From the NCBI RefSeq assembly GCF_058153355.1, contig NZ_CM177019.1: a DNA stretch of 64,000 nucleotides. One strand, written 5' to 3'. The notes below the pieces were generated by a model, which made no database searches, was not told the DNA's origin, and saw nothing but the letters and a program-made list of their open reading frames with translations. How positions within the stretch are numbered: the first letter of the stretch is position 1; each line of letters opens with the position of its first letter. This document shows positions 1 through 59,146 of the stretch, piece after piece. The position numbers were made by a program, and so were the translations under genes.

Positions 1-143
1 AAGCGGCAACACTGGAAGATGTAGGTCGTGAAATTGGCCTCACCCGTGAACGTGTTCGCCAGATTCAGGTTGAAGGCCTGCGCCGTTTGCGCGAAATCCT
101 GCAAACGCAGGGGCTGAATATCGAAGCGTTGTTCCGCGAATAA
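1..143 (+). CDS. rpoS: RNA polymerase sigma factor RpoS, 3' end only (gene starts upstream of window)
   Basis: Translation from position 3 reads [46 protein letters not shown] then stop at 141-143; matches the RpoS C-terminal region-4 HTH. Confidence 0.9.
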
Positions 144-158
144 GTAAGCATCTGTTAG

Positions 159-196
159 AAAGGCCAGTCTCTTATGAGGCTGGCCTTTTTCTTTTG
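159..196 (+). terminator. Rho-independent terminator downstream of rpoS
   Basis: Inverted repeat aggccag...ctggcct followed by a T-run (tttttctttt). Confidence 0.7.
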
Positions 197-263
197 TATG
201 GGGAGTTGGTGTGTTTCGTCGCCTGGATAAGACACGTCAGCGTCCCATCCGGCAATCAACATC

Positions 264-671
264 CTATTTGCTCATCATCTTGCGCACCAGCTGCATAAAC
301 AGCTCCTGCTCTTCTCCACTCAAACGCCCCAAAAATTCCTCATCCACACTGTCGCCAATCGGTATCGCCGCAGCAAGTACCTTTTCTCCTTCGGCAGTCA
401 GCCAGACAAAGCGTCGCCGCTTATCAGCGGTGTCATGTTCACGTCTGACTAAGCCACGATTTTCCATTCTTGCCAACATTTCTGCCAGCGTTGCTTTGGT
501 GCTGACGGCTGCTTCCATCAGTGCCACCTGTTCGATACCAGGTTTATCAGCAATGGCGCGCATCACCGCGTACTGTGGTTTGGTCAGGTCAGGTAACTCG
601 TGCTGCCAGCGGGCCGTATGCTGCTGAAAAAGCTGTCGTAACTGATGGAACGCTTTATTTCGTAACGCCAT
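264..671 (-). CDS. MarR/SlyA-family transcriptional regulator, divergent from the decarboxylase cluster
   Basis: 135-aa ORF of typical MarR size with a central winged-helix-like segment; position and orientation match the SlyA-like regulator described for the rpoS-mutS variable region of non-K-12 E. coli. Confidence 0.75.
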   Translation of the reverse strand: MALRNKAFHQLRQLFQQHTARWQHELPDLTKPQYAVMRAIADKPGIEQVALMEAAVSTKATLAEMLARMENRGLVRREHDTADKRRRFVWLTAEGEKVLAAAIPIGDSVDEEFLGRLSGEEQELFMQLVRKMMSK

Positions 672-786
672 GTAAACTCCGGGCTAATTCTCTGTCGCTA
701 TCATAGCGGTTTTTCAGTGACGAAGAAGATGTTGTTACTTTTCAATCCTTGCCGCTGTGGAAATGAAGGAGTATGCTAATAATAAC

Positions 787-800
787 GTTCGTATACGAAC
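787..800. promoter_or_regulatory. Perfect 14-bp palindrome GTTCGTATACGAAC, candidate MarR-type operator just upstream of the ecdB ribosome-binding site
   Basis: Palindrome read directly; lies between the divergent regulator gene and the ecdB start at 818. Confidence 0.4.
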
Positions 801-817
801 AATTAAGAGAGTAAGCA

Positions 818-1411
818 ATGAAACTGATCGTCGGGATGACAGGGGCTACCGGTGCGCCTCTTGGTGTGGCATTACTGCAAGCGCTGCGGGAGATGCCGAA
901 TGTCGAGACTCATCTGGTGATGTCGAAGTGGGCGAAAACCACTATTGAACTGGAAACGCCTTACAGCGCTCGCGATGTTGCCGCCCTCGCTGACTTCAGC
1001 CATAACCCGGCGGATCAGGCTGCGACCATCTCTTCCGGCTCCTTTCGTACCGACGGCATGATCGTTATTCCATGCAGTATGAAAACGCTCGCCGGTATCC
1101 GCGCTGGTTACGCCGATGGTCTCGTAGGGCGCGCGGCGGACGTCGTGCTCAAAGAAGGCCGCAAACTGGTGCTGGTGCCGCGTGAAATGCCGCTTAGCAC
1201 CATCCATCTCGAAAATATGCTCGCACTTTCGCGCATGGGCGTGGCGATGGTGCCGCCGATGCCTGCCTTTTATAACCATCCCGAAACGGTAGATGACATT
1301 GTCCACCACGTGGTAGCCCGCGTGCTGGATCAATTTGGCCTCGAACATCCTCACGCCAGGCGCTGGCAAGGGTTGCCGCAGGCCCGGAATTTTTCTCAGG
1401 AGAATGAATAA
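818..1411 (+). CDS. ecdB: UbiX-type flavin prenyltransferase, B subunit of hydroxyarylic acid decarboxylase
   Basis: 197-aa ORF with N-terminal GxTGATGA flavoprotein motif (MKLIVGMTGATGAPLG); stop overlaps next start (TAATG). Confidence 0.85.
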   Translation: MKLIVGMTGATGAPLGVALLQALREMPNVETHLVMSKWAKTTIELETPYSARDVAALADFSHNPADQAATISSGSFRTDGMIVIPCSMKTLAGIRAGYADGLVGRAADVVLKEGRKLVLVPREMPLSTIHLENMLALSRMGVAMVPPMPAFYNHPETVDDIVHHVVARVLDQFGLEHPHARRWQGLPQARNFSQENE

Positions 1412-2838
1412 TGGCATTTGATGATTTACGCAGCTTCTTACAGGCGCTTGATGACCACGGCCAGTTACTGAAAATCAGCGAAGAGGTGAACGCGGAACCG
1501 GATCTGGCAGCCGCTGCCAACGCCACCGGGCGTATCGGCGACGGCGCGCCCGCGCTGTGGTTTGATAATATTCGCGGCTTTATCGATGCCCGCGTGGCGA
1601 TGAACACCATCGGCTCCTGGCAGAACCACGCGATTTCCCTCGGGCTGCCACCGAACACACCGGTTAAAAAACAGATTGATGAGTTTATCCGCCGCTGGGA
1701 TAACTTTCCCATTGCCCCGGAACGCCGCGCCAATCCTGCCTGGGCGCAGAACACCGTCGATGGTGACGAGATCAACCTGTTCGATATTCTGCCACTGTTT
1801 CGTTTAAACGATGGCGATGGCGGTTTCTATCTCGACAAAGCGTGCGTGGTTTCCCGCGATCCGCTCGATCCGGATAACTTCGGCAAGCAGAACGTCGGCA
1901 TCTATCGCATGGAAGTGAAGGGTAAGCGTAAGCTCGGCCTGCAACCGGTGCCGATGCACGATATCGCCCTGCATCTGCATAAAGCGGAAGAACGTGGTGA
2001 AGATTTGCCAATTGCCATCACGCTGGGTAACGATCCGATCATCACCCTGATGGGCGCCACCCCGCTGAAATATGATCAATCGGAGTACGAAATGGCGGGC
2101 GCGCTACGCGAAAGCCCGTACCCGATCGCCACCGCCCCGCTGACCGGTTTTGATGTGCCGTGGGGTTCAGAAGTGATCCTCGAAGGGGTTATCGAAAGCC
2201 GCAAACGTGAAATCGAAGGGCCGTTCGGTGAGTTTACCGGGCACTACTCCGGTGGGCGCAACATGACCGTAGTGCGCATCGATAAAGTCTCTTACCGCAC
2301 CAAACCGATTTTTGAATCGCTCTATCTCGGTATGCCGTGGACCGAAATCGACTACCTGATGGGGCCTGCCACCTGCGTGCCGCTTTACCAGCAGTTGAAA
2401 GCCGAGTTCCCGGAAGTGCAGGCGGTGAACGCTATGTACACCCACGGCCTGCTGGCGATTATCTCCACCAAAAAACGCTATGGCGGCTTTGCCCGCGCAG
2501 TGGGCCTGCGTGCGATGACCACGCCGCACGGTCTGGGTTATGTGAAGATGGTGATTATGGTCGATGAAGACGTTGACCCGTTCAACCTGCCGCAGGTGAT
2601 GTGGGCGCTCTCGTCGAAAGTGAACCCGGCAGGGGATCTGGTGCAGTTGCCGAATATGTCAGTACTGGAACTCGACCCTGGCTCAAGCCCGGCGGGGATC
2701 ACCGATAAGCTGATTATCGACGTCACCACGCCTGTCGCCCCGGACAACCGTGGTCACTACAGCCAGCCGGTGGTGGACTTACCGGAAACCAAAGCCTGGG
2801 CTGAAAAACTGACCGCTATGCTGGCCGCACGTAAATAA
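1411..2838 (+). CDS. ecdC: UbiD-family decarboxylase, C subunit of hydroxyarylic acid decarboxylase
   Basis: 475-aa ORF, UbiD-family size and composition; translationally coupled to ecdB. Confidence 0.85.
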   Translation: MAFDDLRSFLQALDDHGQLLKISEEVNAEPDLAAAANATGRIGDGAPALWFDNIRGFIDARVAMNTIGSWQNHAISLGLPPNTPVKKQIDEFIRRWDNFPIAPERRANPAWAQNTVDGDEINLFDILPLFRLNDGDGGFYLDKACVVSRDPLDPDNFGKQNVGIYRMEVKGKRKLGLQPVPMHDIALHLHKAEERGEDLPIAITLGNDPIITLMGATPLKYDQSEYEMAGALRESPYPIATAPLTGFDVPWGSEVILEGVIESRKREIEGPFGEFTGHYSGGRNMTVVRIDKVSYRTKPIFESLYLGMPWTEIDYLMGPATCVPLYQQLKAEFPEVQAVNAMYTHGLLAIISTKKRYGGFARAVGLRAMTTPHGLGYVKMVIMVDEDVDPFNLPQVMWALSSKVNPAGDLVQLPNMSVLELDPGSSPAGITDKLIIDVTTPVAPDNRGHYSQPVVDLPETKAWAEKLTAMLAARK

Positions 2839-2848
2839 GGAGAACAAG

Positions 2849-3085
2849 ATGATTTGTCCACGTTGTGCCGATGAAAAGATTGAAGTGATGGCGAAATCGC
2901 CGGTGAAAAATGTCTGGACGGTCTACCAGTGCCAGCATTGCCTCTATACATGGCGCGATACCGAACCGCTGCGCCGCACCAGCCGCGAACATTATCCCGA
3001 AGCGTTCCGCATGACGCAGAAAGATATTGATGACGCGCCGATGGTGCCGAGCATTCCGCCGCTGCTGGCGGCAGATAAGCGCTAA
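2849..3085 (+). CDS. ecdD: Small zinc-ribbon D subunit of hydroxyarylic acid decarboxylase
   Basis: 78-aa ORF with CPRC...CQHC motif immediately after the UbiD gene, as in B/C/D decarboxylase clusters. Confidence 0.75.
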   Translation: MICPRCADEKIEVMAKSPVKNVWTVYQCQHCLYTWRDTEPLRRTSREHYPEAFRMTQKDIDDAPMVPSIPPLLAADKR

Positions 3086-3090
3086 TAAAA

Positions 3091-3124
3091 AAGGGCCGGG
3101 TAGAGGCTTTGCTTTACCCGGCCA
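3091..3124. terminator. Hairpin between convergent ecdD and pphB, likely bidirectional terminator
   Basis: gggccgggtagaggctttgctttacccggcc stem-loop flanked by A/T runs. Confidence 0.6.
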
Positions 3125-3126
3125 CG

Positions 3127-3783
3127 TTATTTGATTTTATAAAACGACAGCCGCCCGCTTTTCGGCGATCCGGTATCAATATAAATCTGGTTTGCGAACG
3201 TCTGGATGTTATCAAACATCATATGACCGAAGATAAAGCAGTCGGCGCCGTTTATTTCCTGTAACTCGCCTTTGAGCGATTTCAGTACGCGATCAACAGG
3301 CCAGAGCAATTCTCTCTCCGCTATTTCTTTGCCAAAGAGATATTCATTCCCCGGATAATCTGCATGCGCGATGACATATTTTATTATGTCGTTAGTGATT
3401 TCAACAATATGCGGAAGATTATGAAAACGTAGCAACAGGTCTATTGCTTCTTTTTGTTCCGTATCACTTAACTCAAAGAACCAGTCGCCACCGCTGGCAA
3501 GCCACATATTGCCATCGCCGGTCGCGAACGCATCCAATGCCATCGCTTCATGGTTGCCTTTAACCGATGTAAACCAGGGCTGGTTTAGCAGGCGCAGCAC
3601 GTTAAGACTCTCCGGCCCACGATCAATATTATCGCCGACAGAAATAAGTAAGTCGGTTTCAGGACAAAAAGATAATTGGTGCAGGCGGGATTGCAATAAT
3701 TGATAATCTCCATGAATGTCACCTACCACCCAGATATGGCGATAATGAGTGGTTTCAATTTTACGATAACGAATATCTGGCAT
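3127..3783 (-). CDS. pphB: Serine/threonine protein phosphatase 2
   Basis: ORF-track protein from internal Met (MPDIRYRKIETTHYRHIWVVGDIHGDY..., GDxHG and GNHE metallophosphatase motifs), 218 aa; the upstream in-frame extension to 3921 is rejected. Confidence 0.9.
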   Translation of the reverse strand: MPDIRYRKIETTHYRHIWVVGDIHGDYQLLQSRLHQLSFCPETDLLISVGDNIDRGPESLNVLRLLNQPWFTSVKGNHEAMALDAFATGDGNMWLASGGDWFFELSDTEQKEAIDLLLRFHNLPHIVEITNDIIKYVIAHADYPGNEYLFGKEIAERELLWPVDRVLKSLKGELQEINGADCFIFGHMMFDNIQTFANQIYIDTGSPKSGRLSFYKIK

Positions 3784-3805
3784 TGATCGCGCTCCGTAAA
3801 AAGAA

Positions 3806-4669
3806 TTATTCCGGCTTATGAAACAGAATGGTGTTAATCTCGACATCAGTGATTGCGCCAGCTGCTTCTGCTTTATGTAACCAGTATAGCGCTTTGTCTT
3901 TATCCACACCGTTCTCATCAATGCCCCAGGCGTAAATGCGGCCTAAGGATATTTGGGCATGAGGTAAATCTTGTGCGGCAGCTTTTTCAAACCAGTATTT
4001 AGCCTGTTTAATATCAGCGGGTACACCATCGCCCGTTAAAAAGAGCGTACCATAATTATACTGACCAATTTTGTCGCCTTTTTCTGCCGCAAACTTAAGA
4101 TATGTCGCAGCCTGGAGATAATTCTTTTCCTCGGCTGCGAGGAGCCCTAAATTAGCATGTGCAATGGGGTTTCCCTTTTGCGCCGCTTTAACGAGCCAGG
4201 ATTTTGCTTTATCGATATCATGGAACTTCTCTGGACCAAACTGATAGATATTGGCACAGTTTATCTGTGCCTGAAGATTTCCCTGTCTGGCTGATTTCTC
4301 ATACCAGTGAATGGCATTCTGGTAATCCGGCGGTGTGTCTTCATCTCCCTGATGATATAAAAGCCCGACATAAAATTGCGCAATGTCATCTCCCTGACTG
4401 GCTGCCAGATTAAACCAGTAAAATGCTTTATCGCGGTTTTTAACCCCCGTTACCCCTTCCTGGTAAACAATTCCCAATCCTTTTTGCGCAGATTTATCGC
4501 CGCCTTGTGCCCTTGCGATGATATTTTTCAGGTTTTCCTGTTTGTTTTTAGAATAACGTTGTTCAGCCTGGATAAGATCATCAAGCGAGGGTTCTTTGGC
4601 ACAATAACCTGTAAGAGGAAAATGCAAAATTAGTAGAGTAAATAAAATTAACTTTTTCATACATTCCAT
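3806..4669 (-). CDS. Sel1-repeat (TPR-like) protein with N-terminal signal peptide; not present at this position in K-12
   Basis: 287-aa ORF; hydrophobic N-terminus MKKLILFTLLILHFPLTG; repeated ~36-aa units with A-x-YWF/ W-Y-E-K-A-A-x-QG spacing typical of Sel1 repeats. Confidence 0.7.
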   Translation of the reverse strand: MECMKKLILFTLLILHFPLTGYCAKEPSLDDLIQAEQRYSKNKQENLKNIIARAQGGDKSAQKGLGIVYQEGVTGVKNRDKAFYWFNLAASQGDDIAQFYVGLLYHQGDEDTPPDYQNAIHWYEKSARQGNLQAQINCANIYQFGPEKFHDIDKAKSWLVKAAQKGNPIAHANLGLLAAEEKNYLQAATYLKFAAEKGDKIGQYNYGTLFLTGDGVPADIKQAKYWFEKAAAQDLPHAQISLGRIYAWGIDENGVDKDKALYWLHKAEAAGAITDVEINTILFHKPE

Positions 4670-4768
4670 GAATTAATTGTTGAGTCCTGATTTTAATTAT
4701 ACTCCATCTGTTATTGAGCCAATAATAATTAATAATCCCCGATGGGAAGGCCATCGGGAATTATGCCA

Positions 4769-7330
4769 TTACAGCAAACTCTTCAAGCGATAAATCCACT
4801 CCAGCGCCTGACGCGGAGTCAGTGAATCCGGGTCGAGATTTTCCAGTGCTTCGACCGCTGGCGAGGTTTCTTCCGGTACTGACAGCAAAGACATTTGCGT
4901 ACCATCCACTTGCGTAGCGGCGGCGTTCGGCGAAATGCTTTCCAGTTCACGCAGTTTTTGCCGTGCGCGCTTAATAACCTCTTTTGGCACGCCCGCCAGA
5001 GCAGCAACCGCCAGGCCGTAACTTTTGCTCGCCGCGCCATCCTGCACGCTATGCATAAAGGCAATGGTATCACCGTGCTCCAGCGCATCAAGATGCACGT
5101 TGGCGACGCCTTCCATTTTCTCCGGCAGTTGAGTCAGTTCAAAGTAGTGGGTAGCAAACAACGTCAACGCTTTAATCTTATTCGCCAGATTTTCAGCGCA
5201 CGCCCATGCCAGCGACAGACCATCGTAAGTGGACGTTCCGCGCCCAATCTCATCCATCAACACCAGGCTGTACTCCGTGGCGTTATGCAGAATATTAGCG
5301 GTTTCGGTCATCTCCACCATAAAGGTTGAACGCCCGGATGCCAGATCGTCAGCCGCGCCCACACGGGTAAAGATACGGTCAATCGGGCCAATCTCGACTT
5401 TTTGCGCCGGTACGTAGCTGCCGATATAGGCCATCAGCGCAATCAGTGCGGTCTGGCGCATATAGGTACTTTTACCGCCCATGTTCGGACCGGTGATGAT
5501 CAACATGCGACGCTGCGGCGACAGGTTCAGCGGGTTAGCGATAAACGGCTCATTCAGTACCTGTTCAACCACCGGATGGCGACCTTCGGTAATGCGAATG
5601 CCCGGTTTATCAATGAAGGTCGGGCAGGTGTAGTTCAGGGTATAGGCCCGTTCCGCCAGGTTTACCAGTACGTCGAGTTCTGCCAGTGCGCTCGCGCTCT
5701 GTTGCAACGCTTCCAGATGCGGCAACAACAGGTCGAACAACTCTTCATAAAGCTGTTTTTCCAGTGCCAGCGCTTTACCTTTCGAGGTGAGTACTTTGTC
5801 TTCATACTCTTTTAGCTCTGGAATAATGTAGCGTTCGGCGTTTTTCAGCGTCTGGCGACGCATATAGTTGATGGGTGCCAGATGGCTTTGTCCACGGCTA
5901 ATCTGAATGTAATAACCATGCACCGCGTTAAAGCCGACTTTCAGCGTGTCCAGGCCGGTACGTTCACGCTCGCGAACTTCCAGACGCTCCAGATAATCTG
6001 TCGCGCCGTCAGCCAGCGCTCGCCACTCATCCAGCTCTTCGTTATAGCCTGATGCGATAACACCACCGTCGCGTACCAGCACCGGCGGTGTGTCGATGAT
6101 TGCTCGCTCCAGCAGATCGCGCAGCTCTGCAAACTCGCCCATTTTCTCACGCAGCGCCTGTACCGGTGCACTAGCGACATTTTCTAACTGCGCACGCAGC
6201 TCCGGCAGTTGCTGGAAAGCGTGACGCATACGGGCCAGATCGCGTGGGCGGGCAGTCCGTAAAGCCAGACGTGCCAGAATACGTTCCAGGTCGCCGACCT
6301 GACGCAGTACCGGCTGCAGCTCAGCGGTGAAATCCTGCAATGCGCCAATAGTTTGCTGGCGCTCAAGCAACACGCGGGTATCGCGCACTGGCATATGCAG
6401 CCAGCGTTTCAGCATTCGACTCCCCATCGGCGTTACAGTGCAGTCGAGCACGGAAGCCAGCGTGTTTTCCGCACCGCCCGCCAGGTTCTGGGTAATTTCC
6501 AGGTTACGACGCGTCGCGGCATCCATAATGATGCTGTCCTGCTCACGTTCCATAGTGATAGAACGAATATGCGGCAGAGTCGTACGTTGAGTATCTTTCG
6601 CATACTGCAACAGACAACCGGCGGCACAAAGTCCGCGCGGCGCGTTCTCGACGCCAAAACCGACCAGATCGCGAGTGCCAAATTGTAGATTCAACTGCTG
6701 GCGCGCGGTGTCGATTTCAAACTCCCACAGCGGGCGACGGCGCAAGCCGCGACGACCTTCAATCAGCGACATTTCAGCAAAATCTTCTGCATACAGCAGT
6801 TCCGCCGGATTAGTGCGTTGCAGTTCTGCCGCCATCGTTTCGCGGTCAGCCGGTTCGCTCAGGCGAAAACGACCAGAACTGATATCCAGCGTCGCATAGC
6901 CGAATCCTTTGCTGTCCTGCCAGATAGCAGCCAGCAGGTTGTCCTGACGTTCCTGCAACAGCGCTTCATCGCTGATGGTGCCCGGCGTAACGATACGCAC
7001 AACTTTGCGCTCGACCGGCCCTTTGCTGGTCGCCGGATCGCCAATCTGTTCACAAATAGCAACGGACTCGCCCTGATTCACCAGTTTGGCGAGATAGTTT
7101 TCCACCGCATGGTAGGGAATCCCCGCCATCGGGATCGGCTCTCCCGCCGAAGCGCCGCGTTTGGTCAGTGAAATATCCAGCAGTTGTGACGCACGTTTTG
7201 CGTCGTCATAAAACAGTTCGTAAAAGTCACCCATCCGGTAGAACAGCAGGATCTCGGGATGCTGGGCTTTCAGCTTGAGATACTGCTGCATCATTGGCGT
7301 ATGGGCGTCAAAATTTTCTATTGCACTCAT
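4769..7330 (-). CDS. mutS: DNA mismatch repair protein MutS
   Basis: 853-aa [24 protein letters not shown]..., Walker [10 protein letters not shown]; full length. Confidence 0.97.
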
Positions 7331-7576
7331 GGGGTTATGTCCGGTTCCCTGATATTAAATGGGGTGTGATGGTTTTTATTTTCGTTGTAATCACATAAGG
7401 CGCACATGATACCGGAGTTAATCATTTCAGGGGAAGAAGCGAACGGCGAGTTCTTGATGGTGATTCCGGGAAAGATGCTGTTTTGCAGCTTTTGCGTGAT
7501 GCTTATGAAGCAAGTACGCAAAATTGTATCAGTTGGCGACCCCTTCTTCTTCAGAGCCATAGTCCCCTTTCAAATT

Positions 7577-7599
7577 AAGTTGTAATATAAATACATCTT
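7577..7599 (+). promoter_or_regulatory. Candidate NsrR operator upstream of ygbA
   Basis: aagttgtaatataaatacatctt resembles the NsrR inverted-repeat consensus (AAnATGCATTT...AAATACATCTT), 18 bp upstream of the ygbA start. Confidence 0.45.
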
Positions 7600-7616
7600 A
7601 ATGAGGTGGAGGCAGC

Positions 7617-7970
7617 ATGTCCGGCAAGCGTATCTCTCGTGAAAAACTGACGATTAAAAAAATGATCGATCTTTATCAAGCGAAATGCCCGCAGGCGTCA
7701 GCGGAGCCGGCGCATTACGAGGCATTGTTTGCTTATGCGCAAAAACGGCTGGATAAATGTGTGTTCGGCGAAGACAAACCCGCCTGTAAGCAGTGTCCGG
7801 TGCACTGTTACCAGTCTGCAAAGCGTGAAGAGATGAAACAGATTATGCGTTGGGCCGGGCCGCGCATGCTGTGGCGTCATCCGATCCTAACCGTACGCCA
7901 TCTCATTGATGACAAGCGTCCGGTGCCGGAGTTGCCAGAAAAATATCGCCCGAAAAAACCTCGTGAATAG
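7617..7970 (+). CDS. ygbA: Nitric-oxide-induced protein YgbA
   Basis: 117-aa ORF MSGKRISREKLTIKKMIDLYQAKCP... in conserved position between mutS and fhlA. Confidence 0.9.
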   Translation: MSGKRISREKLTIKKMIDLYQAKCPQASAEPAHYEALFAYAQKRLDKCVFGEDKPACKQCPVHCYQSAKREEMKQIMRWAGPRMLWRHPILTVRHLIDDKRPVPELPEKYRPKKPRE

Positions 7971-8008
7971 TATACCGGACAGGCAGATCTGTCCGGTACC
8001 TCATGCAG

Positions 8009-10087
8009 TTAAACCAATGCCGATTTATCAATCCCCAGTCGTTTCATCCGTGATAGCAGTGTGGTGCGTTTTAGTCCCAGACGTTGCGCCGCGCCTTTCG
8101 GCCCGGCAACCACGCCGTTAGTCTCTTTTAATACACGCACAATTAGCTGATATTCATCTTCGCCCTCCTGAGCGACGACCGTTGCAGTCGGCGGCGTTTT
8201 AGGTTCCGGTAAAGCAATATCAGGCAATGACAGCTGCAGCACGTTGCCACGTGTCAGCAATACCGCGCGCTCAATGACGTTTTCCAGCTCGCGTACGTTA
8301 CCTGGCCACTCCATATTGCTCAACGCGCGCAACGTTTCGGCAGGAATGCTGTCGATATTACGCCCCAGACGGCGGGCAATTTTAAAAGTAAAGGATTTTG
8401 CCAGCAGCGGAATATCTTCCGGACGCTCGCGTAGTGGCGGCAGGTGGATCGGGAATACGTTCAGGCGGTAATAGAGATCGCTACGGAACTCGCGGTCGGC
8501 AACCATTTTTTTCAGATCGCGGTTAGTCGCGGCAATTAAACGCACGTCCGTCTGTATAATTTTATTACTGCCGAGACGTTCAAACTCCTGTTCCTGTAAT
8601 ACACGCAGCAACTTCGGTTGTAACTCCAGCGGCATATCACCCACTTCATCGAGGAACAGGGAGCTTTTATCCGCCAGTTCAAAACGACCGATACGCTGGG
8701 CGCTGGCTCCGGTAAACGCACCACGCTCATGGCCAAACAGATCGCTTTCCAACAATCCGGCAGGCATCGCCGCGCAGTTCATTTTTACCATGCGGCGATT
8801 ATTACGCCCACTGAGATTATGGATCGCGCGGGCAATCAGCTCTTTACCAGTGCCAGTTTCACCGAGGATCAGAACTGTACTGTCACTTTGTGCCACCATT
8901 TCAACTTGTTTAAGCACGCTGTACATGGCTTCACTGCGACCAATAATCTCGCCAAATTCACTATCAACATTGTTGAGCTGCTCGGTCAGGGCGAGATTTT
9001 CATCAACCAGTCGTTCTTTCAGACGATGAATTTCCTGATAGGCAAGGGCGTTATCGACAGCGATTGCCACACGTTCAGCAATCTGGCGCAGTAAATTCAG
9101 ATTGGTCGTGGTAAACACTTTCTCTTCGCATTGCGCCAGTTTCAGCACGCCCAGCATGGTGTCGCCAGACATCAGCGGTAATAGGCACAAGGTTTGAATC
9201 TGGTTGCCCCAGGTGTCGAACAACATGCGTTCGTAAGGGGCTAAATTATCTCGCTCGTGGAGATTAATCAGCAGCATCTCTTTGCTTTTAAACACGCGTT
9301 CGGTGAGGGTTCCTGCTTCATCGACTTCGCTCTGTTCGTGAGCGGGATGCTGTTTATCAAGATAGTGAGTGGAGTAGATGTTGAGTTTGTTTTTACGGTG
9401 GCTGCGTAAGACGATGCTGATATCGTCAATGTCGAAATAGTAATGGATTTCTTTGGCGACTTCGCTGACCAGTTCGTCCATATCCAGGCGAGAAAGCACC
9501 GCGTTGGTGATGGCAACCAGGATGCGGAAGTTATCGCGTTCCCGGCATAACAACTCATAGTCGACATTATTGACGACGCGGCTCTGGATTTGTTCGGTGA
9601 CGACAGAAATGATCTGCGTAAAAGTTTGCAGGCGATTGAACTCTTTTTCACTCCACGGGCGATCGTCATAACGAATAAATTCACAGCCACCAAAAATATG
9701 CCCTTCCGCCGCCAGTGGCATCAGGCAATAGTGACCAAATTTGGGGTATAGCCCACCAGCGGCCAGCTGCGGCCAGGTTTCACAAAATTCTTCGTAACTG
9801 CAATGCAGTGTATCAGGGCGCGACAAAATGCTGCGCACCGGACCGTGTGCCAGAACAGTTTCGTCTTCATAATTTATGGGGGTGTCTTTTTCACGCGACG
9901 CGTAATAAGACGCACGTTGAGTCTGCGCTTGCCACAACACAATAGCTGCATTGTCGGCGAGCGCAGAACGCTTTACCAATTGCGAAAGAGCCTCACACAG
10001 CGAGGCCAGATCGGGCTGCTGCAATAGTGTCCGAGTGATGTCGAACAACCCTTGTTGTCCGAGATCACTCATCGGTGTATATGACAT
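8009..10087 (-). CDS. fhlA: Formate hydrogenlyase transcriptional activator (sigma54-dependent)
   Basis: 692 aa from MSYTPMSDLGQ...; GAF N-terminus, AAA+ sigma54-interaction domain ([14 protein letters not shown]), C-terminal HTH; 12-codon upstream extension rejected. Confidence 0.95.
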   Translation of the reverse strand: MSYTPMSDLGQQGLFDITRTLLQQPDLASLCEALSQLVKRSALADNAAIVLWQAQTQRASYYASREKDTPINYEDETVLAHGPVRSILSRPDTLHCSYEEFCETWPQLAAGGLYPKFGHYCLMPLAAEGHIFGGCEFIRYDDRPWSEKEFNRLQTFTQIISVVTEQIQSRVVNNVDYELLCRERDNFRILVAITNAVLSRLDMDELVSEVAKEIHYYFDIDDISIVLRSHRKNKLNIYSTHYLDKQHPAHEQSEVDEAGTLTERVFKSKEMLLINLHERDNLAPYERMLFDTWGNQIQTLCLLPLMSGDTMLGVLKLAQCEEKVFTTTNLNLLRQIAERVAIAVDNALAYQEIHRLKERLVDENLALTEQLNNVDSEFGEIIGRSEAMYSVLKQVEMVAQSDSTVLILGETGTGKELIARAIHNLSGRNNRRMVKMNCAAMPAGLLESDLFGHERGAFTGASAQRIGRFELADKSSLFLDEVGDMPLELQPKLLRVLQEQEFERLGSNKIIQTDVRLIAATNRDLKKMVADREFRSDLYYRLNVFPIHLPPLRERPEDIPLLAKSFTFKIARRLGRNIDSIPAETLRALSNMEWPGNVRELENVIERAVLLTRGNVLQLSLPDIALPEPKTPPTATVVAQEGEDEYQLIVRVLKETNGVVAGPKGAAQRLGLKRTTLLSRMKRLGIDKSALV

Positions 10088-10160
10088 TTTGTTCTTCCAG
10101 GAAAGCACCGCAAAGCGGTGCAAAAGGTCATTGACTAACTATAGGAGATTTAGAATTTTA

Positions 10161-11171
10161 TTAGCATATACGCGGAAGCGGTTCGGCGTGTGGTAAATCG
10201 AGGGTTCGTTTCACGCCATACAGACCGGCAAGACGAACACCTTTACGTTCCACCACTTCACCAATCAGCGCCGCGTCTTTCCCCAGTGGATGGGAATGTA
10301 ACGCCGCCAGCACTTGCTCTGCTGCGTTGCGTTCAACGGCGATCACCAGTTTGCCTTCGTTGGCAAAGTTAAGGGCGTCCAGCCCCAGCAGTTCGCAAAC
10401 GCCGCGCACGGCAGGTTTAACCGGCAGTGCCGCTTCTGAAATTTCAATACCACAACCGCAGGCTGCCGCGAACTCATGAACTACCGCGTTCACTCCACCA
10501 CGGGTGGCGTCACGCAGTGCCTTCACACCGGGAATATCACGCAGCGTCTGGATGAGCGGCGTCAGCACTGCGCAGTCGCTGACCAGTTCGCCATCCAGCC
10601 CCAGTTGCTCGCGCAGATTAAGAATAGTTGCTCCGTGGTCGCCGAGAGTTCCACTCACCAGCAGAACATCGCCTGCGGTTAGCGTCTGTGCGCCCCAGTG
10701 AATATTCGCCGGGATCGCGCCCATGCCAGCGGTGTTGATAAACAGTTTATCTGCCGCGCCGCGTTGCACCACTTTAGTGTCGCCTGTAACGATGGCAATG
10801 CCTGCCGCGCGGGCGGTTTCTGCCATGCTGGTCACCACGGCTTTTAGCGTCTCCATCGGCAATCCCTCTTCGAGGATAAAGCCACAAGAGAGATAGCGCG
10901 GAATAGCGCCACTGACCGCAACGTCATTCGCGGTGCCACAAATCGCCAGCTTGCCAATATTGCCACCAGGAAAGAACAGCGGGTCGATGACGTAGCTGTC
11001 GGTGGAGAACGCCAGACGGTCGCCTTCTGCCACCAGCTGCGCCAGCTCAAGGCGCGCCTGGTCTTCCTGTTCTGCCAGCCACGGATTGGCAAAAGCTTCC
11101 ATAAACAGGCTGTTGATTAATTGCTGCATCGCCTGGCCGCCGCTGCCGTGGGCGAGTTGGATATTATTCAC
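10161..11171 (-). CDS. hypE: Hydrogenase maturation protein HypE
   Basis: 336-aa ORF, last gene of the hyp cluster. Confidence 0.93.
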   Translation of the reverse strand: MNNIQLAHGSGGQAMQQLINSLFMEAFANPWLAEQEDQARLELAQLVAEGDRLAFSTDSYVIDPLFFPGGNIGKLAICGTANDVAVSGAIPRYLSCGFILEEGLPMETLKAVVTSMAETARAAGIAIVTGDTKVVQRGAADKLFINTAGMGAIPANIHWGAQTLTAGDVLLVSGTLGDHGATILNLREQLGLDGELVSDCAVLTPLIQTLRDIPGVKALRDATRGGVNAVVHEFAAACGCGIEISEAALPVKPAVRGVCELLGLDALNFANEGKLVIAVERNAAEQVLAALHSHPLGKDAALIGEVVERKGVRLAGLYGVKRTLDLPHAEPLPRIC

Positions 11172-12289
11172 GCTTCACTCTCCTGCTGACGATACTGATA
11201 CCACGCGGCGCATGCTCCCTCGGAGGAAACCATCAGCGCGCCAAACGCGGTTTGAGGATTACAGGTGTTACCAAACAGCGGGCATTGATGCGGCTTACAT
11301 TTGCCCGTCAATACTTCGCCACAACGTGCGCGCGGGTCATCGCAAACCTGCTGCGGTGCCGGGCGGAAATGCGCTTCGGCGTCAAATCGTTGATAGTCTG
11401 GCGTCAGGTGTACACCAGAAGATTCAATCACGCCTAAGCCGCGCCATTCGCTGTCGCCGTTGACACAGAACACATCCGCAATCGCCTGTTGCGCCAGCAG
11501 GTTACCGGCATCTGGCACCACCCGCCGATACTGATTTTCTACCTTGCTGTGGGCCGCTATTTTCTGCTCCACCAGCATGACCACGCCTTGTAGTAGATCA
11601 AGCGGTTCGAATCCAGCAACCACCAGAGGACGATGAAAATCACTGGCGATAAAATTATAGGCGTCGGTGCCGATAACCATACTGACGTGGCCCGGCGCGA
11701 GGAACGCATCGATACCGTTATCCGGCTGTTCCAGCAAACTGCGTAGCGTTGGGATCAGCGTAATATGCTGGCAGAAAAAGTAAAAATTTTGCACATCGCG
11801 GGCTTTCGCCTGTTGCAGAGTGATGGCCGTCGTCGGCATGGTGGTTTCAAACCCTAAGCCGAAGAACACCACTTTACGAGTTGGATTCTCCTGCGCCAGT
11901 TTCAACGCATCCATTGGCGAGTAAACGATGCGAACATCGGCACCGCGCGCTTTTGCCTGTAACAGCGACCCTTGTTTCCCTGGTACGCGCATGGCGTCGC
12001 CAAAGGTACAGAAGATGACTTCCGGATGGCTGGCAATCTCCACGCAAGTGTCGATTCTTCCCATCGGCAGTACACATACCGGGCAACCCGGACCGTGGAT
12101 AAACTCGACGTTTTCCGGCAGCAACTGGTCGAGGCCGAATTTAAAAATGGCGTGGGTATGACCGCCGCACACTTCCATAATCCGCAGAGGGCGTTCGGCG
12201 GTGTAAGAGAGATGTGAAGCACGTTCGCGTAGATGCTCAATTAACTGCATCACCTGTTCCGGCGCGCGATATTCATCAACAAAACGCAT
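11168..12289 (-). CDS. hypD: Hydrogenase maturation protein HypD
   Basis: 373-aa ORF, overlaps hypE start by 4 nt. Confidence 0.95.
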   Translation of the reverse strand: MRFVDEYRAPEQVMQLIEHLRERASHLSYTAERPLRIMEVCGGHTHAIFKFGLDQLLPENVEFIHGPGCPVCVLPMGRIDTCVEIASHPEVIFCTFGDAMRVPGKQGSLLQAKARGADVRIVYSPMDALKLAQENPTRKVVFFGLGFETTMPTTAITLQQAKARDVQNFYFFCQHITLIPTLRSLLEQPDNGIDAFLAPGHVSMVIGTDAYNFIASDFHRPLVVAGFEPLDLLQGVVMLVEQKIAAHSKVENQYRRVVPDAGNLLAQQAIADVFCVNGDSEWRGLGVIESSGVHLTPDYQRFDAEAHFRPAPQQVCDDPRARCGEVLTGKCKPHQCPLFGNTCNPQTAFGALMVSSEGACAAWYQYRQQESEA

Positions 12290-21763: not shown

Positions 21764-21787
21764 TTTTTCAGTAAGGAATTCAGGGAA

Positions 21788-22156
21788 TTGAAAATCAGAA
21801 CAGGGATGTGCGCTTTTTTATTTTGCTTAGTGCTTCCTACGCAGGCTACCAGCTTTACCGAATATCTGCCAATGAGTGACAGCGAATACGCGCAAAAGCG
21901 GGCGCTGAAACCTCTCCTGACTATGCCTTATTATACCGAGCAAACCTGGCATTTTAGAAAAGTGGGCGTTGCTGGCGTGACGCTTGAGAAGATGCCAAAT
22001 GAAGAGGATTACTGGCAATTAACTGCTAAAGACCGCGCCGGTAAATCCTGGAAGGTGCCTGTGGGTATGCTGGCAAATATGGCGGGCAAAGGGCAACTCT
22101 ATCGCGCCGATCTGGATCGTAACGGCATTCAGGATCTGGTTACCAAGTGCTGGTAA
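21788..22156 (+). CDS. Hypothetical secreted protein (N-terminal part of a possibly split gene), accessory
   Basis: 122-aa ORF with signal-peptide-like N-terminus MCAFLFCLVLPTQA and a DLDRNGIQDL motif; no K-12 counterpart at this locus. Confidence 0.45.
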   Translation: MKIRTGMCAFLFCLVLPTQATSFTEYLPMSDSEYAQKRALKPLLTMPYYTEQTWHFRKVGVAGVTLEKMPNEEDYWQLTAKDRAGKSWKVPVGMLANMAGKGQLYRADLDRNGIQDLVTKCW

Positions 22157-22187
22157 TGGTCTGGCTCCTTATGCACATTTAATCCTT

Positions 22188-22553
22188 ATGACGTTCACGC
22201 GCGATGGTCGTCCCTGTGTCTTTGAACCCTGGGGATTCTACACCGCAAGCAAAACTGGCGTAGATGATTTGCTGGATTTGCAAGGCAATGGCCACACACA
22301 ATTGCTGGATATGCAGTTTAATTCTGGTTACTGGATAACCAGTCTGTATCAGGTAAAAGACGCCAAATGGCAACGTGTTCACGGCTGGTTTGGCAAGTTA
22401 AGCTATCCCGCGCTCACGCGTTTTACTTATACCCCCAACCGTAAACTCGTCCTCAAACCCATTGCCGGGCGTGACCCGCAAACGGAAGATTTAGCGCTGA
22501 CGCAGCGTTGTTTGATAACAGGGGATGTGCTTGATGGGGTGAATCAGAACTGA
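22188..22553 (+). CDS. Hypothetical protein (possible C-terminal part of the same split gene), accessory
   Basis: 121-aa ORF in a different frame 31 bp after the previous stop; contains a DLLDLQGNGHTQLLD motif. Confidence 0.4.
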   Translation: MTFTRDGRPCVFEPWGFYTASKTGVDDLLDLQGNGHTQLLDMQFNSGYWITSLYQVKDAKWQRVHGWFGKLSYPALTRFTYTPNRKLVLKPIAGRDPQTEDLALTQRCLITGDVLDGVNQN

Positions 22554-22715
22554 CTTTTTGCAGAGTGGGTATGAGGATTTTGGGGGAGAATTATATCGCG
22601 CGCAAGTGTTTACATATTGTGAACTTGGATTTGGTGAGCTATAGTTTCTGAACACATAAGGATAGAACTCGCAGATGTGGCTGTTTACTTACTATAAGGA
22701 AGTTAAAACTTAAAA

Positions 22716-23027
22716 ATGCACATCATTTCGAAAGCGCCATTTGAAGAGTCTGCGCGCAAATATCCTAACGACGCTCTGGCTCTACACTCATTGTATCGGG
22801 TTATTAAGGAAACGGATTTTTCTACGCCAGAAGAAATGCGAACGGCGTTTCCCAACCTCGACAATTTTAAATATCGCAACAAATGGTACGTTCTGGATGT
22901 CGGCGGGAACAATCTTAGGGTTATTGCCTACATAAACTTTGTTAATAAGCGGTTCTTTGTGAAGCACATAACGAATCATGCCGAGTATGACAAACTGACA
23001 CGTTACTACAGAGAGAACAAAGAATGA
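22716..23027 (+). CDS. HigB-like toxin (RelE/ParE superfamily mRNA interferase)
   Basis: 103-aa ORF; similar in length and conserved segments (FPNLDNFKY, VGGNNLRV, H..YD) to E. coli HigB; toxin gene precedes antitoxin with a 4-nt ATGA overlap. Confidence 0.75.
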   Translation: MHIISKAPFEESARKYPNDALALHSLYRVIKETDFSTPEEMRTAFPNLDNFKYRNKWYVLDVGGNNLRVIAYINFVNKRFFVKHITNHAEYDKLTRYYRENKE

Positions 23028-23443
23028 CTGCTAATGCTGCACGCGCTGTTAAAGCAACAAGAGAACTGGTCAATGCAGTCCCCTTTCTGGGAGGCAGTGA
23101 CTCAGAAGATGATTATCGTGAAGCACTGGAACTGGTCGAATATTTGATTGAAGAAGATGACACCAATCCACTTATCGACTTTCTGGCGAGCCGCATTGCA
23201 GAGTATGAAAACAACCACGAAAAGTTTGCAGAGTTCGACAAAGCCGTTGCTGCAATGCCGGTTGGCGTGGCGTTACTTCGCACGTTGATTGATCAACATA
23301 ATCTGACCTATGCGGATTTGAAGAACGAAATCGGCTCTAAATCCCTGGTCAGTCAGATTTTGTCTGGACAAAGATCCCTGACGATATCCCACATTAAGGC
23401 ACTTTCAGCCCGATTTGGCGTTAAGCCGGAATGGTTTCTTTGA
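23024..23443 (+). CDS. HigA-like antitoxin (XRE-family HTH)
   Basis: 139-aa ORF; C-terminal segment IGSKSLVSQILSGQRSLTISHIKALSARFGV matches the HigA HTH region. Confidence 0.75.
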   Translation: MTANAARAVKATRELVNAVPFLGGSDSEDDYREALELVEYLIEEDDTNPLIDFLASRIAEYENNHEKFAEFDKAVAAMPVGVALLRTLIDQHNLTYADLKNEIGSKSLVSQILSGQRSLTISHIKALSARFGVKPEWFL

Positions 23444-23488: not shown

Positions 23489-24718
<1,230 letters not shown>

Positions 24719-24748
24719 CATGCCTGCAATCTGGGAAACCGGGGTAGA

Positions 24749-24779
<31 letters not shown>

Positions 24780-42760: not shown

Positions 42761-42798
42761 CTCTTTGCAAGAGGGAGGTTAAACTTCCCTCTGTTTTC

Positions 42799-43038
42799 TT
42801 ACTGTTTATTCGAATGACGTAATTGCTTGATTTTTTTCGACAGCGATATCGCATATCCCAGGCAGACAACGCCTAACGCAGCCTGACCGAAGTCGAAAGG
42901 TTCAAGGTAGCCAGAAGATAAAATTTTACATATCACTGAAACCAGTGCGCCGATGCCACCAATGATGACCCAAATACGCATTTGCGTGGTTTGTTTAAGC
43001 ACGTTTTGTGGCGTGTTATCCGTTTTCTTTGTTGCCAT
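42799..43038 (-). CDS. Candidate small membrane protein (~79 aa; alternative start gives ~60 aa)
   Basis: ORF from MATKKTDNT with a gggagag Shine-Dalgarno ~8 nt upstream; two hydrophobic helices (IWVIIGGIGALVSVICKIL, AALGVVCLGYAISL). Confidence 0.3.
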   Translation of the reverse strand: MATKKTDNTPQNVLKQTTQMRIWVIIGGIGALVSVICKILSSGYLEPFDFGQAALGVVCLGYAISLSKKIKQLRHSNKQ

Positions 43039-43217
43039 TGCTATTCTCTCCCTGTGAATACATATCAATGTGAACGCGGCATGGTAGCGCTTTTTCTTTA
43101 CCGACTGGTCGCAACAGTCTTTTTCCGGAACGCAACTCGTAAAATCAATCGCTCGTCCCCATCTTCTGCGGGAAAGTGCTATCTTGTCCGGCATATATTT
43201 TTTGACTGACTGAGGTT

Positions 43218-48919: not shown

Positions 48920-49012
48920 GGTGAGGTGGCCGAGAGGCTGAAGGCGCTCCCCTGCTAAGGGAGTATGCGGTCAAAAGCTGCATCCGGGGTTCGAATCCCC
49001 GCCTCACCGCCA
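48920..49012 (+). tRNA. serV: tRNA-Ser (GCU)
   Basis: 93-nt GGTGAGGTGGCCGAGAGGC...CGCCTCACCGCCA with long variable arm and encoded CCA. Confidence 0.95.
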
Positions 49013-49015
49013 TTT

Positions 49016-49092
49016 GCATCCGTAGCTCAGCTGGATAGAGTACTCGGCTACGAACCGAGCGGTCGGAGGTTCGAATCCTCCCGGATGCACCA
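49016..49092 (+). tRNA. argV: tRNA-Arg (ACG), copy 1
   Basis: 77-nt GCATCCGTAGCTCAGCTGGATAGAGTACTCGGCTACGAACCGAGCGGTCGGAGGTTCGAATCCTCCCGGATGCACCA; anticodon loop CT-ACG-AA. Confidence 0.95.
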
Positions 49093-49155
49093 TATTCTAC
49101 GAAATCTTCAGCGATGAAGGTGTCGAAGAGGTGGCGGTACTAACCGCAAGCACTA

Positions 49156-49227
49156 GGGAGGATAACGTTGCTTTAGCAACGGCCCGAAGGGCGAGCCGTA
49201 AGGCGAGTAATCCTCCCGGATGCACCA
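49156..49227 (+). other. Degenerate tRNA-Arg remnant (3' acceptor/T-stem half retained, body replaced)
   Basis: gggagg...[unrelated ~50 nt]...aatcctcccggatgcacca; the last 19 nt are identical to the 3' end of the intact copies. Confidence 0.5.
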
Positions 49228-49291
49228 TCTCTTACTTGATACGGCTTTAGTAGCGGTATCAAAAAATCTGCAGTAAAGTAAGTTTCCCGAT

Positions 49292-49368
49292 GCATCCGTA
49301 GCTCAGCTGGATAGAGTACTCGGCTACGAACCGAGCGGTCGGAGGTTCGAATCCTCCCGGATGCACCA
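49292..49368 (+). tRNA. tRNA-Arg (ACG), copy 2
   Basis: Identical 77-nt sequence to copy 1. Confidence 0.95.
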
Positions 49369-49470
49369 TATTCTCCGTAATCATCAGTGATGATGGTTAA
49401 GATGGATTTTCTTATTTGATATGGCTTTAGTAGCGGTATCAATATCAGCAGTAAAATAAGTTTTCCCGAT

Positions 49471-49547
49471 GCATCCGTAGCTCAGCTGGATAGAGTACTC
49501 GGCTACGAACCGAGCGGTCGGAGGTTCGAATCCTCCCGGATGCACCA
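49471..49547 (+). tRNA. tRNA-Arg (ACG), copy 3
   Basis: Identical 77-nt sequence to copy 1. Confidence 0.95.
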
Positions 49548-52389: not shown

Positions 52390-52462
52390 AAAAAGGCCAC
52401 TCGTGAGTGGCCAAAATTTCATCTCTGAATTCAGGGATGATGATAACAAATGCGCGTCTTTC
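52390..52462 (-). ncRNA. micA: MicA (SraD) small regulatory RNA
   Basis: Minus strand reads GAAAGACGCGCATTTGTTATCATCATCCCTGAATTCAGAGATGAAATTTTGGCCACTCACGAGTGGCCTTTTT, the MicA sequence with its terminator, between gshA and luxS. Confidence 0.9.
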
Positions 52463-58955: not shown

Positions 58956-59067
58956 TATTTTTATTCATCAGGTGATGATTAAGCTGGAAATCAATAATAG
59001 CGGATGTTGATGAATATGGGATGAAAGATAGATTGTTGAAATGTGCGGTGTGGTTTGTAGACATGAT

Positions 59068-59128
59068 AAGACGCGGCCGCGTCGCATCAGGCATTGTGTA
59101 CAGAGCGGCGGATAAGGCGAAAACGCCT
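59068..59128. repeat. REP elements between ygaY and proX
   Basis: gacgcggccgcgtcgcatcaggc and gcggcggataaggcgaaaacgccttatccgccc palindromes. Confidence 0.75.
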
Positions 59129-59146
59129 TATCCGCCCGAATAAAAA

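Follow-up and report, generated by a model that had tools for sequence, protein, structure and literature searches.

A probable hosA-BCD decarboxylase locus and a separately polymorphic Sel1-like-repeat gene between rpoS and mutS

Gene content of the rpoS-mutS interval

We analysed a 64-kb stretch of DNA from contig NZ_CM177019.1 of the NCBI RefSeq assembly GCF_058153355.1 (hereafter the window), in which the interval between rpoS and mutS carries a decarboxylase cassette with a divergent regulator, the phosphatase gene pphB and a gene for a Sel1-like-repeat (SLR) protein. The segment 264-3085 is very probably the hosA-BCD locus, alias slyA/kpdR-kpdBCD, pad1-yclCD or ecdBCD, and would hence encode a ligand-inducible, non-oxidative and reversible decarboxylase of 4-hydroxybenzoate (4-HBA) and related phenolic acids. 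Between pphB and mutS, the presence or absence of the Sel1 gene forms a second polymorphism, independent of the alternative between the cassette and the ygbI-N genes. The layout was read from the list of open reading frames (ORFs) and from the raw sequence, and comprised the following features (lengths of products in amino acids, aa).

1-143, plus strand: 3' end of rpoS, with codons from base 3 and the stop codon TAA at 141-143; it bears the rpoS label in matching E. coli records.
157-190, plus strand: rpoS terminator-like hairpin and T run, an inverted repeat with a 15-pair stem and then CTTTTGTATG.
264-671, minus strand: hosA-type gene for a MarR-family repressor of 135 aa, divergent from the operon (Pfam MarR, PDB 8AGA).
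Between 671 and 818: hosA-ecdB spacer of 146 bp.
749-780, plus strand: candidate operon promoter, with TTGCCG at 749-754, a 17-nt spacer and TATGCT at 772-777.
787-800, 18 nt before the ecdB ATG: HosA operator, the perfect 14-bp palindrome GTTCGTATACGAAC, read directly.
818-1411, plus strand: B gene (ecdB/kpdB/vdcB/pad1), UbiX-family flavin prenyltransferase of 197 aa (NCBIfam VdcB, PDB 1SBZ).
1411-2838, plus strand: C gene, UbiD-family decarboxylase of 475 aa, dependent on prenylated flavin mononucleotide (prFMN) (NCBIfam VdcC, Pfam, PDB 7AE4_A).
2849-3085, plus strand: D gene, zinc-ribbon activator subunit of 78 aa (NCBIfam VdcD, PDB 7AE4_a).
3094-3123: GC-rich hairpin where ecdD and pphB converge, with a 12-pair stem including 8 GC pairs.
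3127-3783, minus strand: pphB, serine/threonine protein phosphatase 2 of 218 aa (NCBIfam NF007425, Pfam Metallophos).
3806-4660, minus strand: SLR gene (hereafter Sel1), 284 aa (Pfam Sel1); the longest ORF extends to 4669 and has 287 aa.
4696-4701, minus strand: TATAAT box, a candidate Sel1 promoter read from sequence, with TTGGCT 15 nt farther upstream.
4732-4764, minus strand: mutS terminator-like hairpin with a 14-pair stem, whose position is kept in strains with and without Sel1.
4769-7330, minus strand: mutS, 853 aa, assigned by its ORF and by mutS in matching records; right boundary of the variable interval.

The B, C and D genes form a one-strand operon, with a 1-nt overlap between B and C and a 10-nt gap between C and D, and the sole terminator-like hairpin in this operon is the one 3' of D, at 3094-3123, which is likely a bidirectional terminator. 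A scan of the whole window against Rfam gave no RNA family match within positions 1-8000. PphB scored 454.3 bits with NF007425 (cut-off 332) over positions 1-218 of 218, and its Pfam Metallophos domain is a calcineurin-like metallophosphoesterase domain. An earlier note on this DNA, made from the letters and the ORF list (the original prediction), had described the rpoS, pphB and mutS ORFs as they stand here, and the ORF lengths that it quoted were exact when compared with the list and the sequence. Its 287 aa for Sel1 is the length of the longest ORF; the likely start is the second ATG (4660, MKK...), which gives 284 aa, has GGA 5 nt upstream and matches both the RefSeq annotation and all the orthologues.

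The decarboxylase cassette and its regulator

Absence of UbiX/UbiD family membership on profile search had been set beforehand as what would speak against the original prediction, and the search placed B, C and D above the curated cut-offs; these matches, like those of PphB and Sel1, go far beyond chance. Precisely, B scored 312.2 bits with NCBIfam VdcB (cut-off 290) and 257.4 bits with a UbiX subfamily model (cut-off 188), carries a Pfam Flavoprotein domain and matched PDB 1SBZ (Pad1 of E. coli O157:H7) over its full length with E = 1.6e-129. For C, the NCBIfam VdcC score was 786.7 bits (cut-off 650) over model positions 2-466 of 467, the Pfam domains UbiD_N, UbiD and UbiD_C were all present, and PDB 7AE4_A (ShVdcC of Sedimentibacter hydroxybenzoicus) matched with E = 1.3e-159; its catalytic residues are R163 in GIYR and E269 and E274 in EGPFGE. 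The small D protein reached 121.3 bits with NCBIfam VdcD (cut-off 30) and matched ShdD of PDB 7AE4_a with E = 2.3e-10, and its cysteines 3, 6, 28 and 31 make two CXXC knuckles at the positions of the zinc ligands of ShVdcD. Both the E(D)RE motif and these zinc ligands have been described for VdcCD, and subunits of the VdcD type are restricted to the Vdc/Bsd/Kpd group, LpdD being unrelated to them (PMC8379154). According to the same source, B is the synthase of the prFMN cofactor and not a stable subunit, the enzyme complex being made of C and D only. The B-C-D architecture of a hydroxyarylic acid decarboxylase that had been proposed is thus present, while the label "three-subunit" is historical, since B makes the cofactor.

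The regulator matched Pfam MarR with E = 1.1e-12 and the PDB entry 8AGA, "Transcriptional regulator HosA", with E = 2.1e-82 over residues 1-134; together with its minus strand, this agrees with the divergent MarR regulator foreseen from the ORF list. It is 95-100% identical to E. coli copies, and its translation has Asp110, a residue named as a HosA ligand contact (bioRxiv 10.1101/2024.04.24.590444). As a true SlyA it was rejected, with 27.3 bits against a cut-off of 120 for the equivalog NF002926, so that the resemblance to SlyA is at family level only.

In the biosensor paper on HosA of E. coli UMN026 the site is called a "14-bp palindromic TFBS" (transcription factor binding site), and the supplementary oligonucleotides carry it with its natural flanks (PMC6261655); the palindrome at 787-800 is identical to this published site. 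We aligned the hosA-ecdB spacers of four E. coli, three Citrobacter and two Pseudocitrobacter loci: the operator half-sites GTTCG/CGAAC were invariant and the remaining spacer was mostly unalignable, apart from TTG and GTA..TA columns, corresponding to the promoter, that are kept across the three genera. HosA is described as repressing its own gene and the decarboxylase operon from a site downstream of the transcription start, and the UMN026 protein is released from DNA by 4-HBA (bioRxiv 10.1101/2024.04.24.590444).

By analogy with these systems, we propose that HosA, as a MarR-family dimer, would bind GTTCGTATACGAAC just 3' of the putative promoter and block transcription of B-C-D, and that 4-HBA would bind HosA and take it off the DNA. 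B (UbiX-type) would prenylate reduced FMN to prFMN, with which the predicted hexamer of C (UbiD-type), by its R-E-E triad, would remove CO2 from 4-HBA or vanillate to give phenol or guaiacol. D, as a Cys4 zinc ribbon, would bind C stoichiometrically and steady the loops of the catalytic residues, an allosteric activation of C. As far as PMC8379154 and Lupa 2005, the latter as reported in papers citing it, describe them, VdcCD-type homologues decarboxylate 4-HBA and vanillate in a reversible and oxygen-sensitive reaction. The cassette hence predicts formation of phenol and guaiacol by the strain in the anaerobic gut, from 4-HBA and vanillate supplied by diet, parabens and tyrosine catabolism. 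The locus also offers a ready 4-HBA biosensor module, although both such a use and the conversion are already established for other E. coli.

Family membership, conserved motifs, operator and gene order are directly supported at the locus, while enzyme activity, inducer and repression would follow from published work on close homologues. It weighs against our reading that activity, induction and HosA binding of the cassette rest on these homologues, that the range of substrates is taken over from those in C. hydroxybenzoicum/Sedimentibacter, B. subtilis, K. pneumoniae and E. coli UMN026, and that a consensus promoter scan called no sigma-70 site in the hosA-ecdB spacer, because of which the promoter at 749-777 had to be placed by eye from the conserved columns. 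On the same side stands the Sel1 gene, whose function, as proposed below, is read from its sequence and a structure model.

We also considered other identities for the enzymes. Being of the same protein families, the UbiX/UbiD pair could be a spare copy for ubiquinone biosynthesis (3-octaprenyl-4-hydroxybenzoate decarboxylase); in fact, B passes UbiX-family subfamily models and the E. coli UbiD structures 2IDB and 5M1C match at E = 4e-46. However, C stays at 171.3 bits with the UbiD equivalog NF008175 (cut-off 788) but reaches 787 with VdcC (cut-off 650); a VdcD zinc-ribbon partner is present here and none accompanies ubiD; the operon appears to be under a 4-HBA-responsive repressor; and 55% of the E. 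coli genomes are without the cassette, which therefore is not an essential copy of the ubiquinone pathway. Since the ubiquinone UbiD equivalog failed, as that of SlyA did, a spare ubiquinone pathway is hardly credible. Only slightly better placed, and still highly improbable, is the idea that C acts on protocatechuate (AroY-type) or gallate (LpdC-type) instead of being a 4-HBA/vanillate decarboxylase. Such enzymes are likewise of the UbiD superfamily and work with a B partner as well, and the AroY structures 5O3M and 5NY5 match at E = 1e-24 to 1e-27; the ShVdcC match is better by about 130 orders of magnitude, the VdcD-type subunit is confined to the Vdc/Bsd/Kpd group, and the ligand of the regulator, as judged from its homologue, is 4-HBA.

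The Sel1 gene and the history of the interval

The distribution of the cassette was assessed by megablast of positions 672-3100 (at least 80% coverage) on 5426 complete E. coli genomes: 2379 of them (about 44%) have it, and no plasmid-borne copy was found among them. The interval occurs in several arrangements, which agrees with the description of the rpoS-mutS polymorphism and of the kpdBCD/slyA pattern (PMC4209514) and with the known polymorphic site named in the original prediction. They are the cassette with pphB (O157 type); the cassette with ygbN-I and pphB, seen in two annotated examples, a coexistence that is found in many E. coli; the cassette with pphB and Sel1 (the window, E. coli 2020CK-00188 and E. 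coli PRO_A-1490); ygbN-I with pphB only (K-12 type), seen as genomes matching only pphB; and mutS-Sel1-pphB-ygbI-ltnD-otnK-ygbL, in public assemblies with exactly the Sel1 protein of the window (two, plus 17 similar places).

The ygbI-N genes are absent from the window, in which a blastn search with the 6.07-kb ygbN-ygbI segment gave no match, and the content of the interval is indeed of a non-K-12 type. The proposal that the cassette and Sel1 replace ygbI-N therefore stands for the cassette; Sel1 lies outside that swap, because an identical Sel1 protein also adjoins ygbI-ltnD-otnK-ygbL. We consider this separation of the Sel1 indel from the cassette/ygbI-N swap as the main value of the analysis. 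The cassette, its regulator, the operator, the structures and the interval polymorphism are already known, and only the uncharacterised Sel1 gene leaves a question. Modestly new are the two Sel1 alleles (about 54% identical), the gene order common to Citrobacter and Pseudocitrobacter, and the signs of an ecdC-ecdD exchange, all treated below.

A Sel1 protein with an N-terminal signal-like segment had been expected between pphB and mutS, and both the domain and the composition of the N-terminus bear this out. Pfam Sel1 scored 143.5 bits (cut-off 30.7; E = 9.7e-43), and PDB entries were also matched by sequence. The protein begins with MKK and 12-13 hydrophobic residues, followed by ..GYCA, and is Sec-signal-like; its AlphaFold model (pLDDT 88.8) has residues 1-20 unstructured and then 15 helices. 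A signal peptide is suggested by the composition, by these unstructured first 20 residues and by the conserved hydrophobic N-terminus. With Foldseek, the model matched 4BWR (top), 6OK3, 8SXQ, 6DEH and 1OUV with probability 1.0, and the proteins so matched (EsiB/c5321, Oxalobacter Sel1 proteins, LceB, LpnE and HcpC) are only about 30% identical to it. None of the NCBIfam equivalogs MotX, AlgK, MerG and ExoR was approached, all scores being far under the cut-off (MerG 76.7 against 350, MotX 52.4 against 330). Two further identities were tried and rejected: a lipoprotein, as the cysteine is preceded by residues (..LTGYC) that make no lipobox, and is not conserved in the orthologues; and a type VI secretion system immunity protein, as the SLR immunity proteins PA5086-5088 gave Foldseek E-values of about 1e-4 to 1e-5, no better than generic SLR similarity. 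Sel1 would be a Sec-exported alpha/alpha solenoid, most likely with a role as a periplasmic or secreted protein-binding scaffold.

On the same strand, 22 nt separate the end of the Sel1 gene from the pphB ATG. Co-transcription of the two is likely because this short gap contains GGAG and no hairpin. The consensus promoter scan called no site upstream of Sel1; the candidate promoter at 4696-4701 was read by eye, and its perfect TATAAT on the minus strand sits downstream of the mutS terminator hairpin.

The Sel1 allele of the window (at least 99% identity) was found in 11 complete E. coli genomes and a second allele, whose copies are at least 99% identical to one another, in 182, including the enteroaggregative E. 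coli strain 042; together they account for about 193 of the 5426 genomes. The second allele (allele 2) is 54% identical to that of the window in protein and 62% in DNA, while the MutS proteins encoded beside the two are about 100% identical. When the junctions were aligned with those of Sel1-less strains, Sel1 appeared as a clean indel of about 880 bp with no repeats. Real orthologues, with 54-68% identity, were found only in Citrobacter and Pseudocitrobacter, the remaining hits being generic Sel1 similarity of 38% or less. At the site of these two genera the order is mutS-Sel1-(pphB or other ORF)-D-C-B-marR, with rpoS beyond it in Citrobacter. A species scan of genome contigs returned two loci, in C. 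werkmanii and in a metagenome-assembled genome of Pseudocitrobacter; as it covered two peptide patterns and a single genome of each species, it says little on absence elsewhere.

The ratio of nonsynonymous to synonymous substitution rates (dN/dS) of Sel1 was 0.19 between E. coli allele 2 and Pseudocitrobacter and 0.11 between the window and C. enshiensis. In the same comparisons, ecdB, ecdC and mutS gave 0.01-0.06, ecdD 0.05-0.09 and pphB 0.12. Sel1 is hence under purifying selection, looser than that of its neighbours.

Such ratios bear on the possibility that the Sel1 ORF is decaying or a remnant without function, in support of which about 96% of the E. coli genomes are without it and the 90%-identity cluster of the window protein has products of 170, 87 and 119 aa, truncated or split, in dozens of E. 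coli contigs, which suggests decay in some lineages. Against a remnant speak, besides the dN/dS of 0.11-0.19, the ORF intact in the window and in three genera, the confident solenoid model, and 93 invariant residues kept despite an overall identity of 54-68%, and we regard it as very unlikely. The opposite proposal, of a selectively maintained and fast-diversifying exported factor, e.g. in host or competitor interaction or as a periplasmic partner in PphB-linked envelope signalling, is in its turn doubtful. In its favour are the two allele classes, so different beside a near-identical MutS, and the same gene order in Citrobacter and Pseudocitrobacter, with one allele class near the Pseudocitrobacter gene; alternatively, Sel1 may be incidental cargo of a recombination hot spot. 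As for the arrangement as a whole, hosA has been claimed to be "acquired from Shigella" (bioRxiv 10.1101/2024.04.24.590444), which would fit a recently acquired foreign island. An island would also fit the GC content, which differs from the flanks (0.55-0.58 in ecdBCD, 0.43-0.44 in pphB and sel1), the synonymous divergence (dS) of ecdC-ecdD between E. coli and Pseudocitrobacter, which at 0.21-0.30 is the same as within E. coli against about 0.9 for mutS, and the 91-93% DNA identity of allele-2 sel1 and pphB to Pseudocitrobacter (dS between the allele-2 strain and Pseudocitrobacter 0.22 for sel1 and 0.35 for pphB). However, the order mutS-Sel1-(pphB)-D-C-B-marR(-rpoS) recurs in Citrobacter werkmanii, C. 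enshiensis, other Citrobacter and Pseudocitrobacter, which argues that the "pathogen-type" arrangement is old and against a recent acquisition from Shigella. Moreover, hosA and ecdB of Citrobacter and Pseudocitrobacter are diverged as much as mutS or more (E. coli against Pseudocitrobacter: dS about 1.1 for ecdB, saturated for hosA), and the junctions have no integrase, insertion sequence (IS) or direct repeats. A repeat search revealed neither long inverted nor long direct repeats on either side of the cassette or Sel1, so that nothing points to a mobile element. We thus consider a recent island unlikely, though less so than the remnant. The simplest reading of these sequence comparisons is that the cassette and Sel1 have long resided at the site in the Escherichia/Citrobacter group and have disappeared from many E. 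coli, and that segments would have been swapped by homologous recombination. Allelic replacement of this kind is a known behaviour of the mutS region (PMC4209514), and the low dS of ecdC-ecdD points to this segment alone having been exchanged between genera.

We also compared DNA identities along the interval. The ecdC-ecdD segment (window 1411-3085) is 94-96% identical to the locus of Pseudocitrobacter corydidari (9585-11259), where ecdB of the window is 81% identical, hosA 70% and mutS 85%. The allele-2 sel1 and pphB of E. coli PRO_A-1490 (locus 7127-8671) are 93% and 91% identical to those of P. corydidari (8001-9543), and only 62% and 87% identical to the window copies. Within E. coli, pphB is unusually diverged, with a dS of 0.57-0.64 between the window and other E. 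coli. Between the mutS of the window and common E. coli alleles the DNA difference is about 5.6% (dS about 0.27), with about 100% identity in protein, a divergence that fits the known mosaic history of mutS.

Flanking regions and comparison with known systems

Identity over the mutS-fhlA segment is 90-95% with 5404 E. coli records and rises to 98-99% with about 18, while the hypF-gutQ segment is 95-99% identical to most E. coli. The whole window is 98-99% identical to E. coli 2013C-4282 apart from a few indels, and the public assembly SRR28786219 is 99.99% identical to it over 9.7 kb. From these identities we place the window in an Escherichia coli-like lineage of which complete genomes are scarce. 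In SRR28786219 (9527-10519) rpoS is split into products of 277 aa and 42 aa, and in E. coli 2020CK-00188 (locus 2151-3144) it is annotated as frameshifted; the window holds only the last 143 bases of the gene.

Elsewhere in the window, a segment of about 950 bp after hycI (21766-22712), missing from E. coli 2013C-4282, has two adjacent plus-strand ORFs with no Pfam match (21788-22156, 122 aa, and 22188-22553, 121 aa). The first starts with the signal-like MKIRTGMCAFLFCLVLPTQA, and the two may be one gene split by a frameshift. Between hycI and ascB, at 22716-23443 on the plus strand, lies a HigB toxin of 103 aa (PF09907, E = 3.8e-23) with a helix-turn-helix antitoxin of 139 aa, a pair also present in 2013C-4282. 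An IS110-family element (23497-24774; ORF 23689-24669, plus strand) is inserted between this higBA pair and ascB and is absent there in 2013C-4282; its transposase of 326 aa has the domains DEDD_Tnp_IS110 and Transposase_20, and it may resemble IS621, the bridge-RNA recombinase. About 340 bp near mltB/pncC (42794-43135) had no megablast match to 2013C-4282. At the gathering score, Rfam gave four tRNA genes, the small RNA MicA, and naRNA4 (CssrE) at 48920-49544, 52391-52462 and 59060-59137, all ordinary E. coli features.

The closest known system is the hosA-hadBCD or slyA-pad1-yclCD locus of E. coli O157:H7, enteropathogenic E. coli and the uropathogenic E. coli (UPEC) strain UMN026, which has the same genes in the same order, the same position adjacent to rpoS and the same operator. 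Compared with the O157-type copy, protein identity is 95% for HosA, 99% for B, 99% for C and 95% for D, and DNA identity is 94-97%, with only 87% for pphB. The two differ at the other end of the interval: in the O157 type nothing but a spacer of about 105 bp separates pphB from mutS, whereas the window has the 855-bp Sel1 gene in between. In E. coli K-12 the interval (ygbI, ltnD/ygbJ, otnK/ygbK, ygbL, ygbM, ygbN, pphB) has the same rpoS and mutS boundaries and keeps pphB. There the L-threonate/tetronate genes are present and the decarboxylase cassette is missing, the reverse of the window, and many strains have both.

Beyond E. coli, VdcCD of Sedimentibacter hydroxybenzoicus (ShdCD; PDB 7AE4, 7AE5 and 7AE7), BsdBCD of B. 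subtilis and KpdBCD of K. pneumoniae likewise pair a UbiD-type C with a zinc-ribbon D. The window shares with this group the E(D)RE motif, the cysteines 3, 6, 28 and 31 and the D residues R36 and E39 that contact C. It differs in that R12 of ShVdcD corresponds to E12 in the D protein of the window; the Sedimentibacter, Bacillus and Klebsiella organisms are distant, and the activity of the window copy would be argued from them by analogy. As for Sel1, EsiB/c5321 of UPEC CFT073 (PDB 4BWR), LpnE, LceB, HcpC and the Oxalobacter Sel1 proteins resemble it in having an SLR alpha-solenoid and, as predicted for Sel1, an N-terminal export signal. EsiB, with about 31% identity, 467 aa against 284 aa and another chromosomal site, is not its orthologue.

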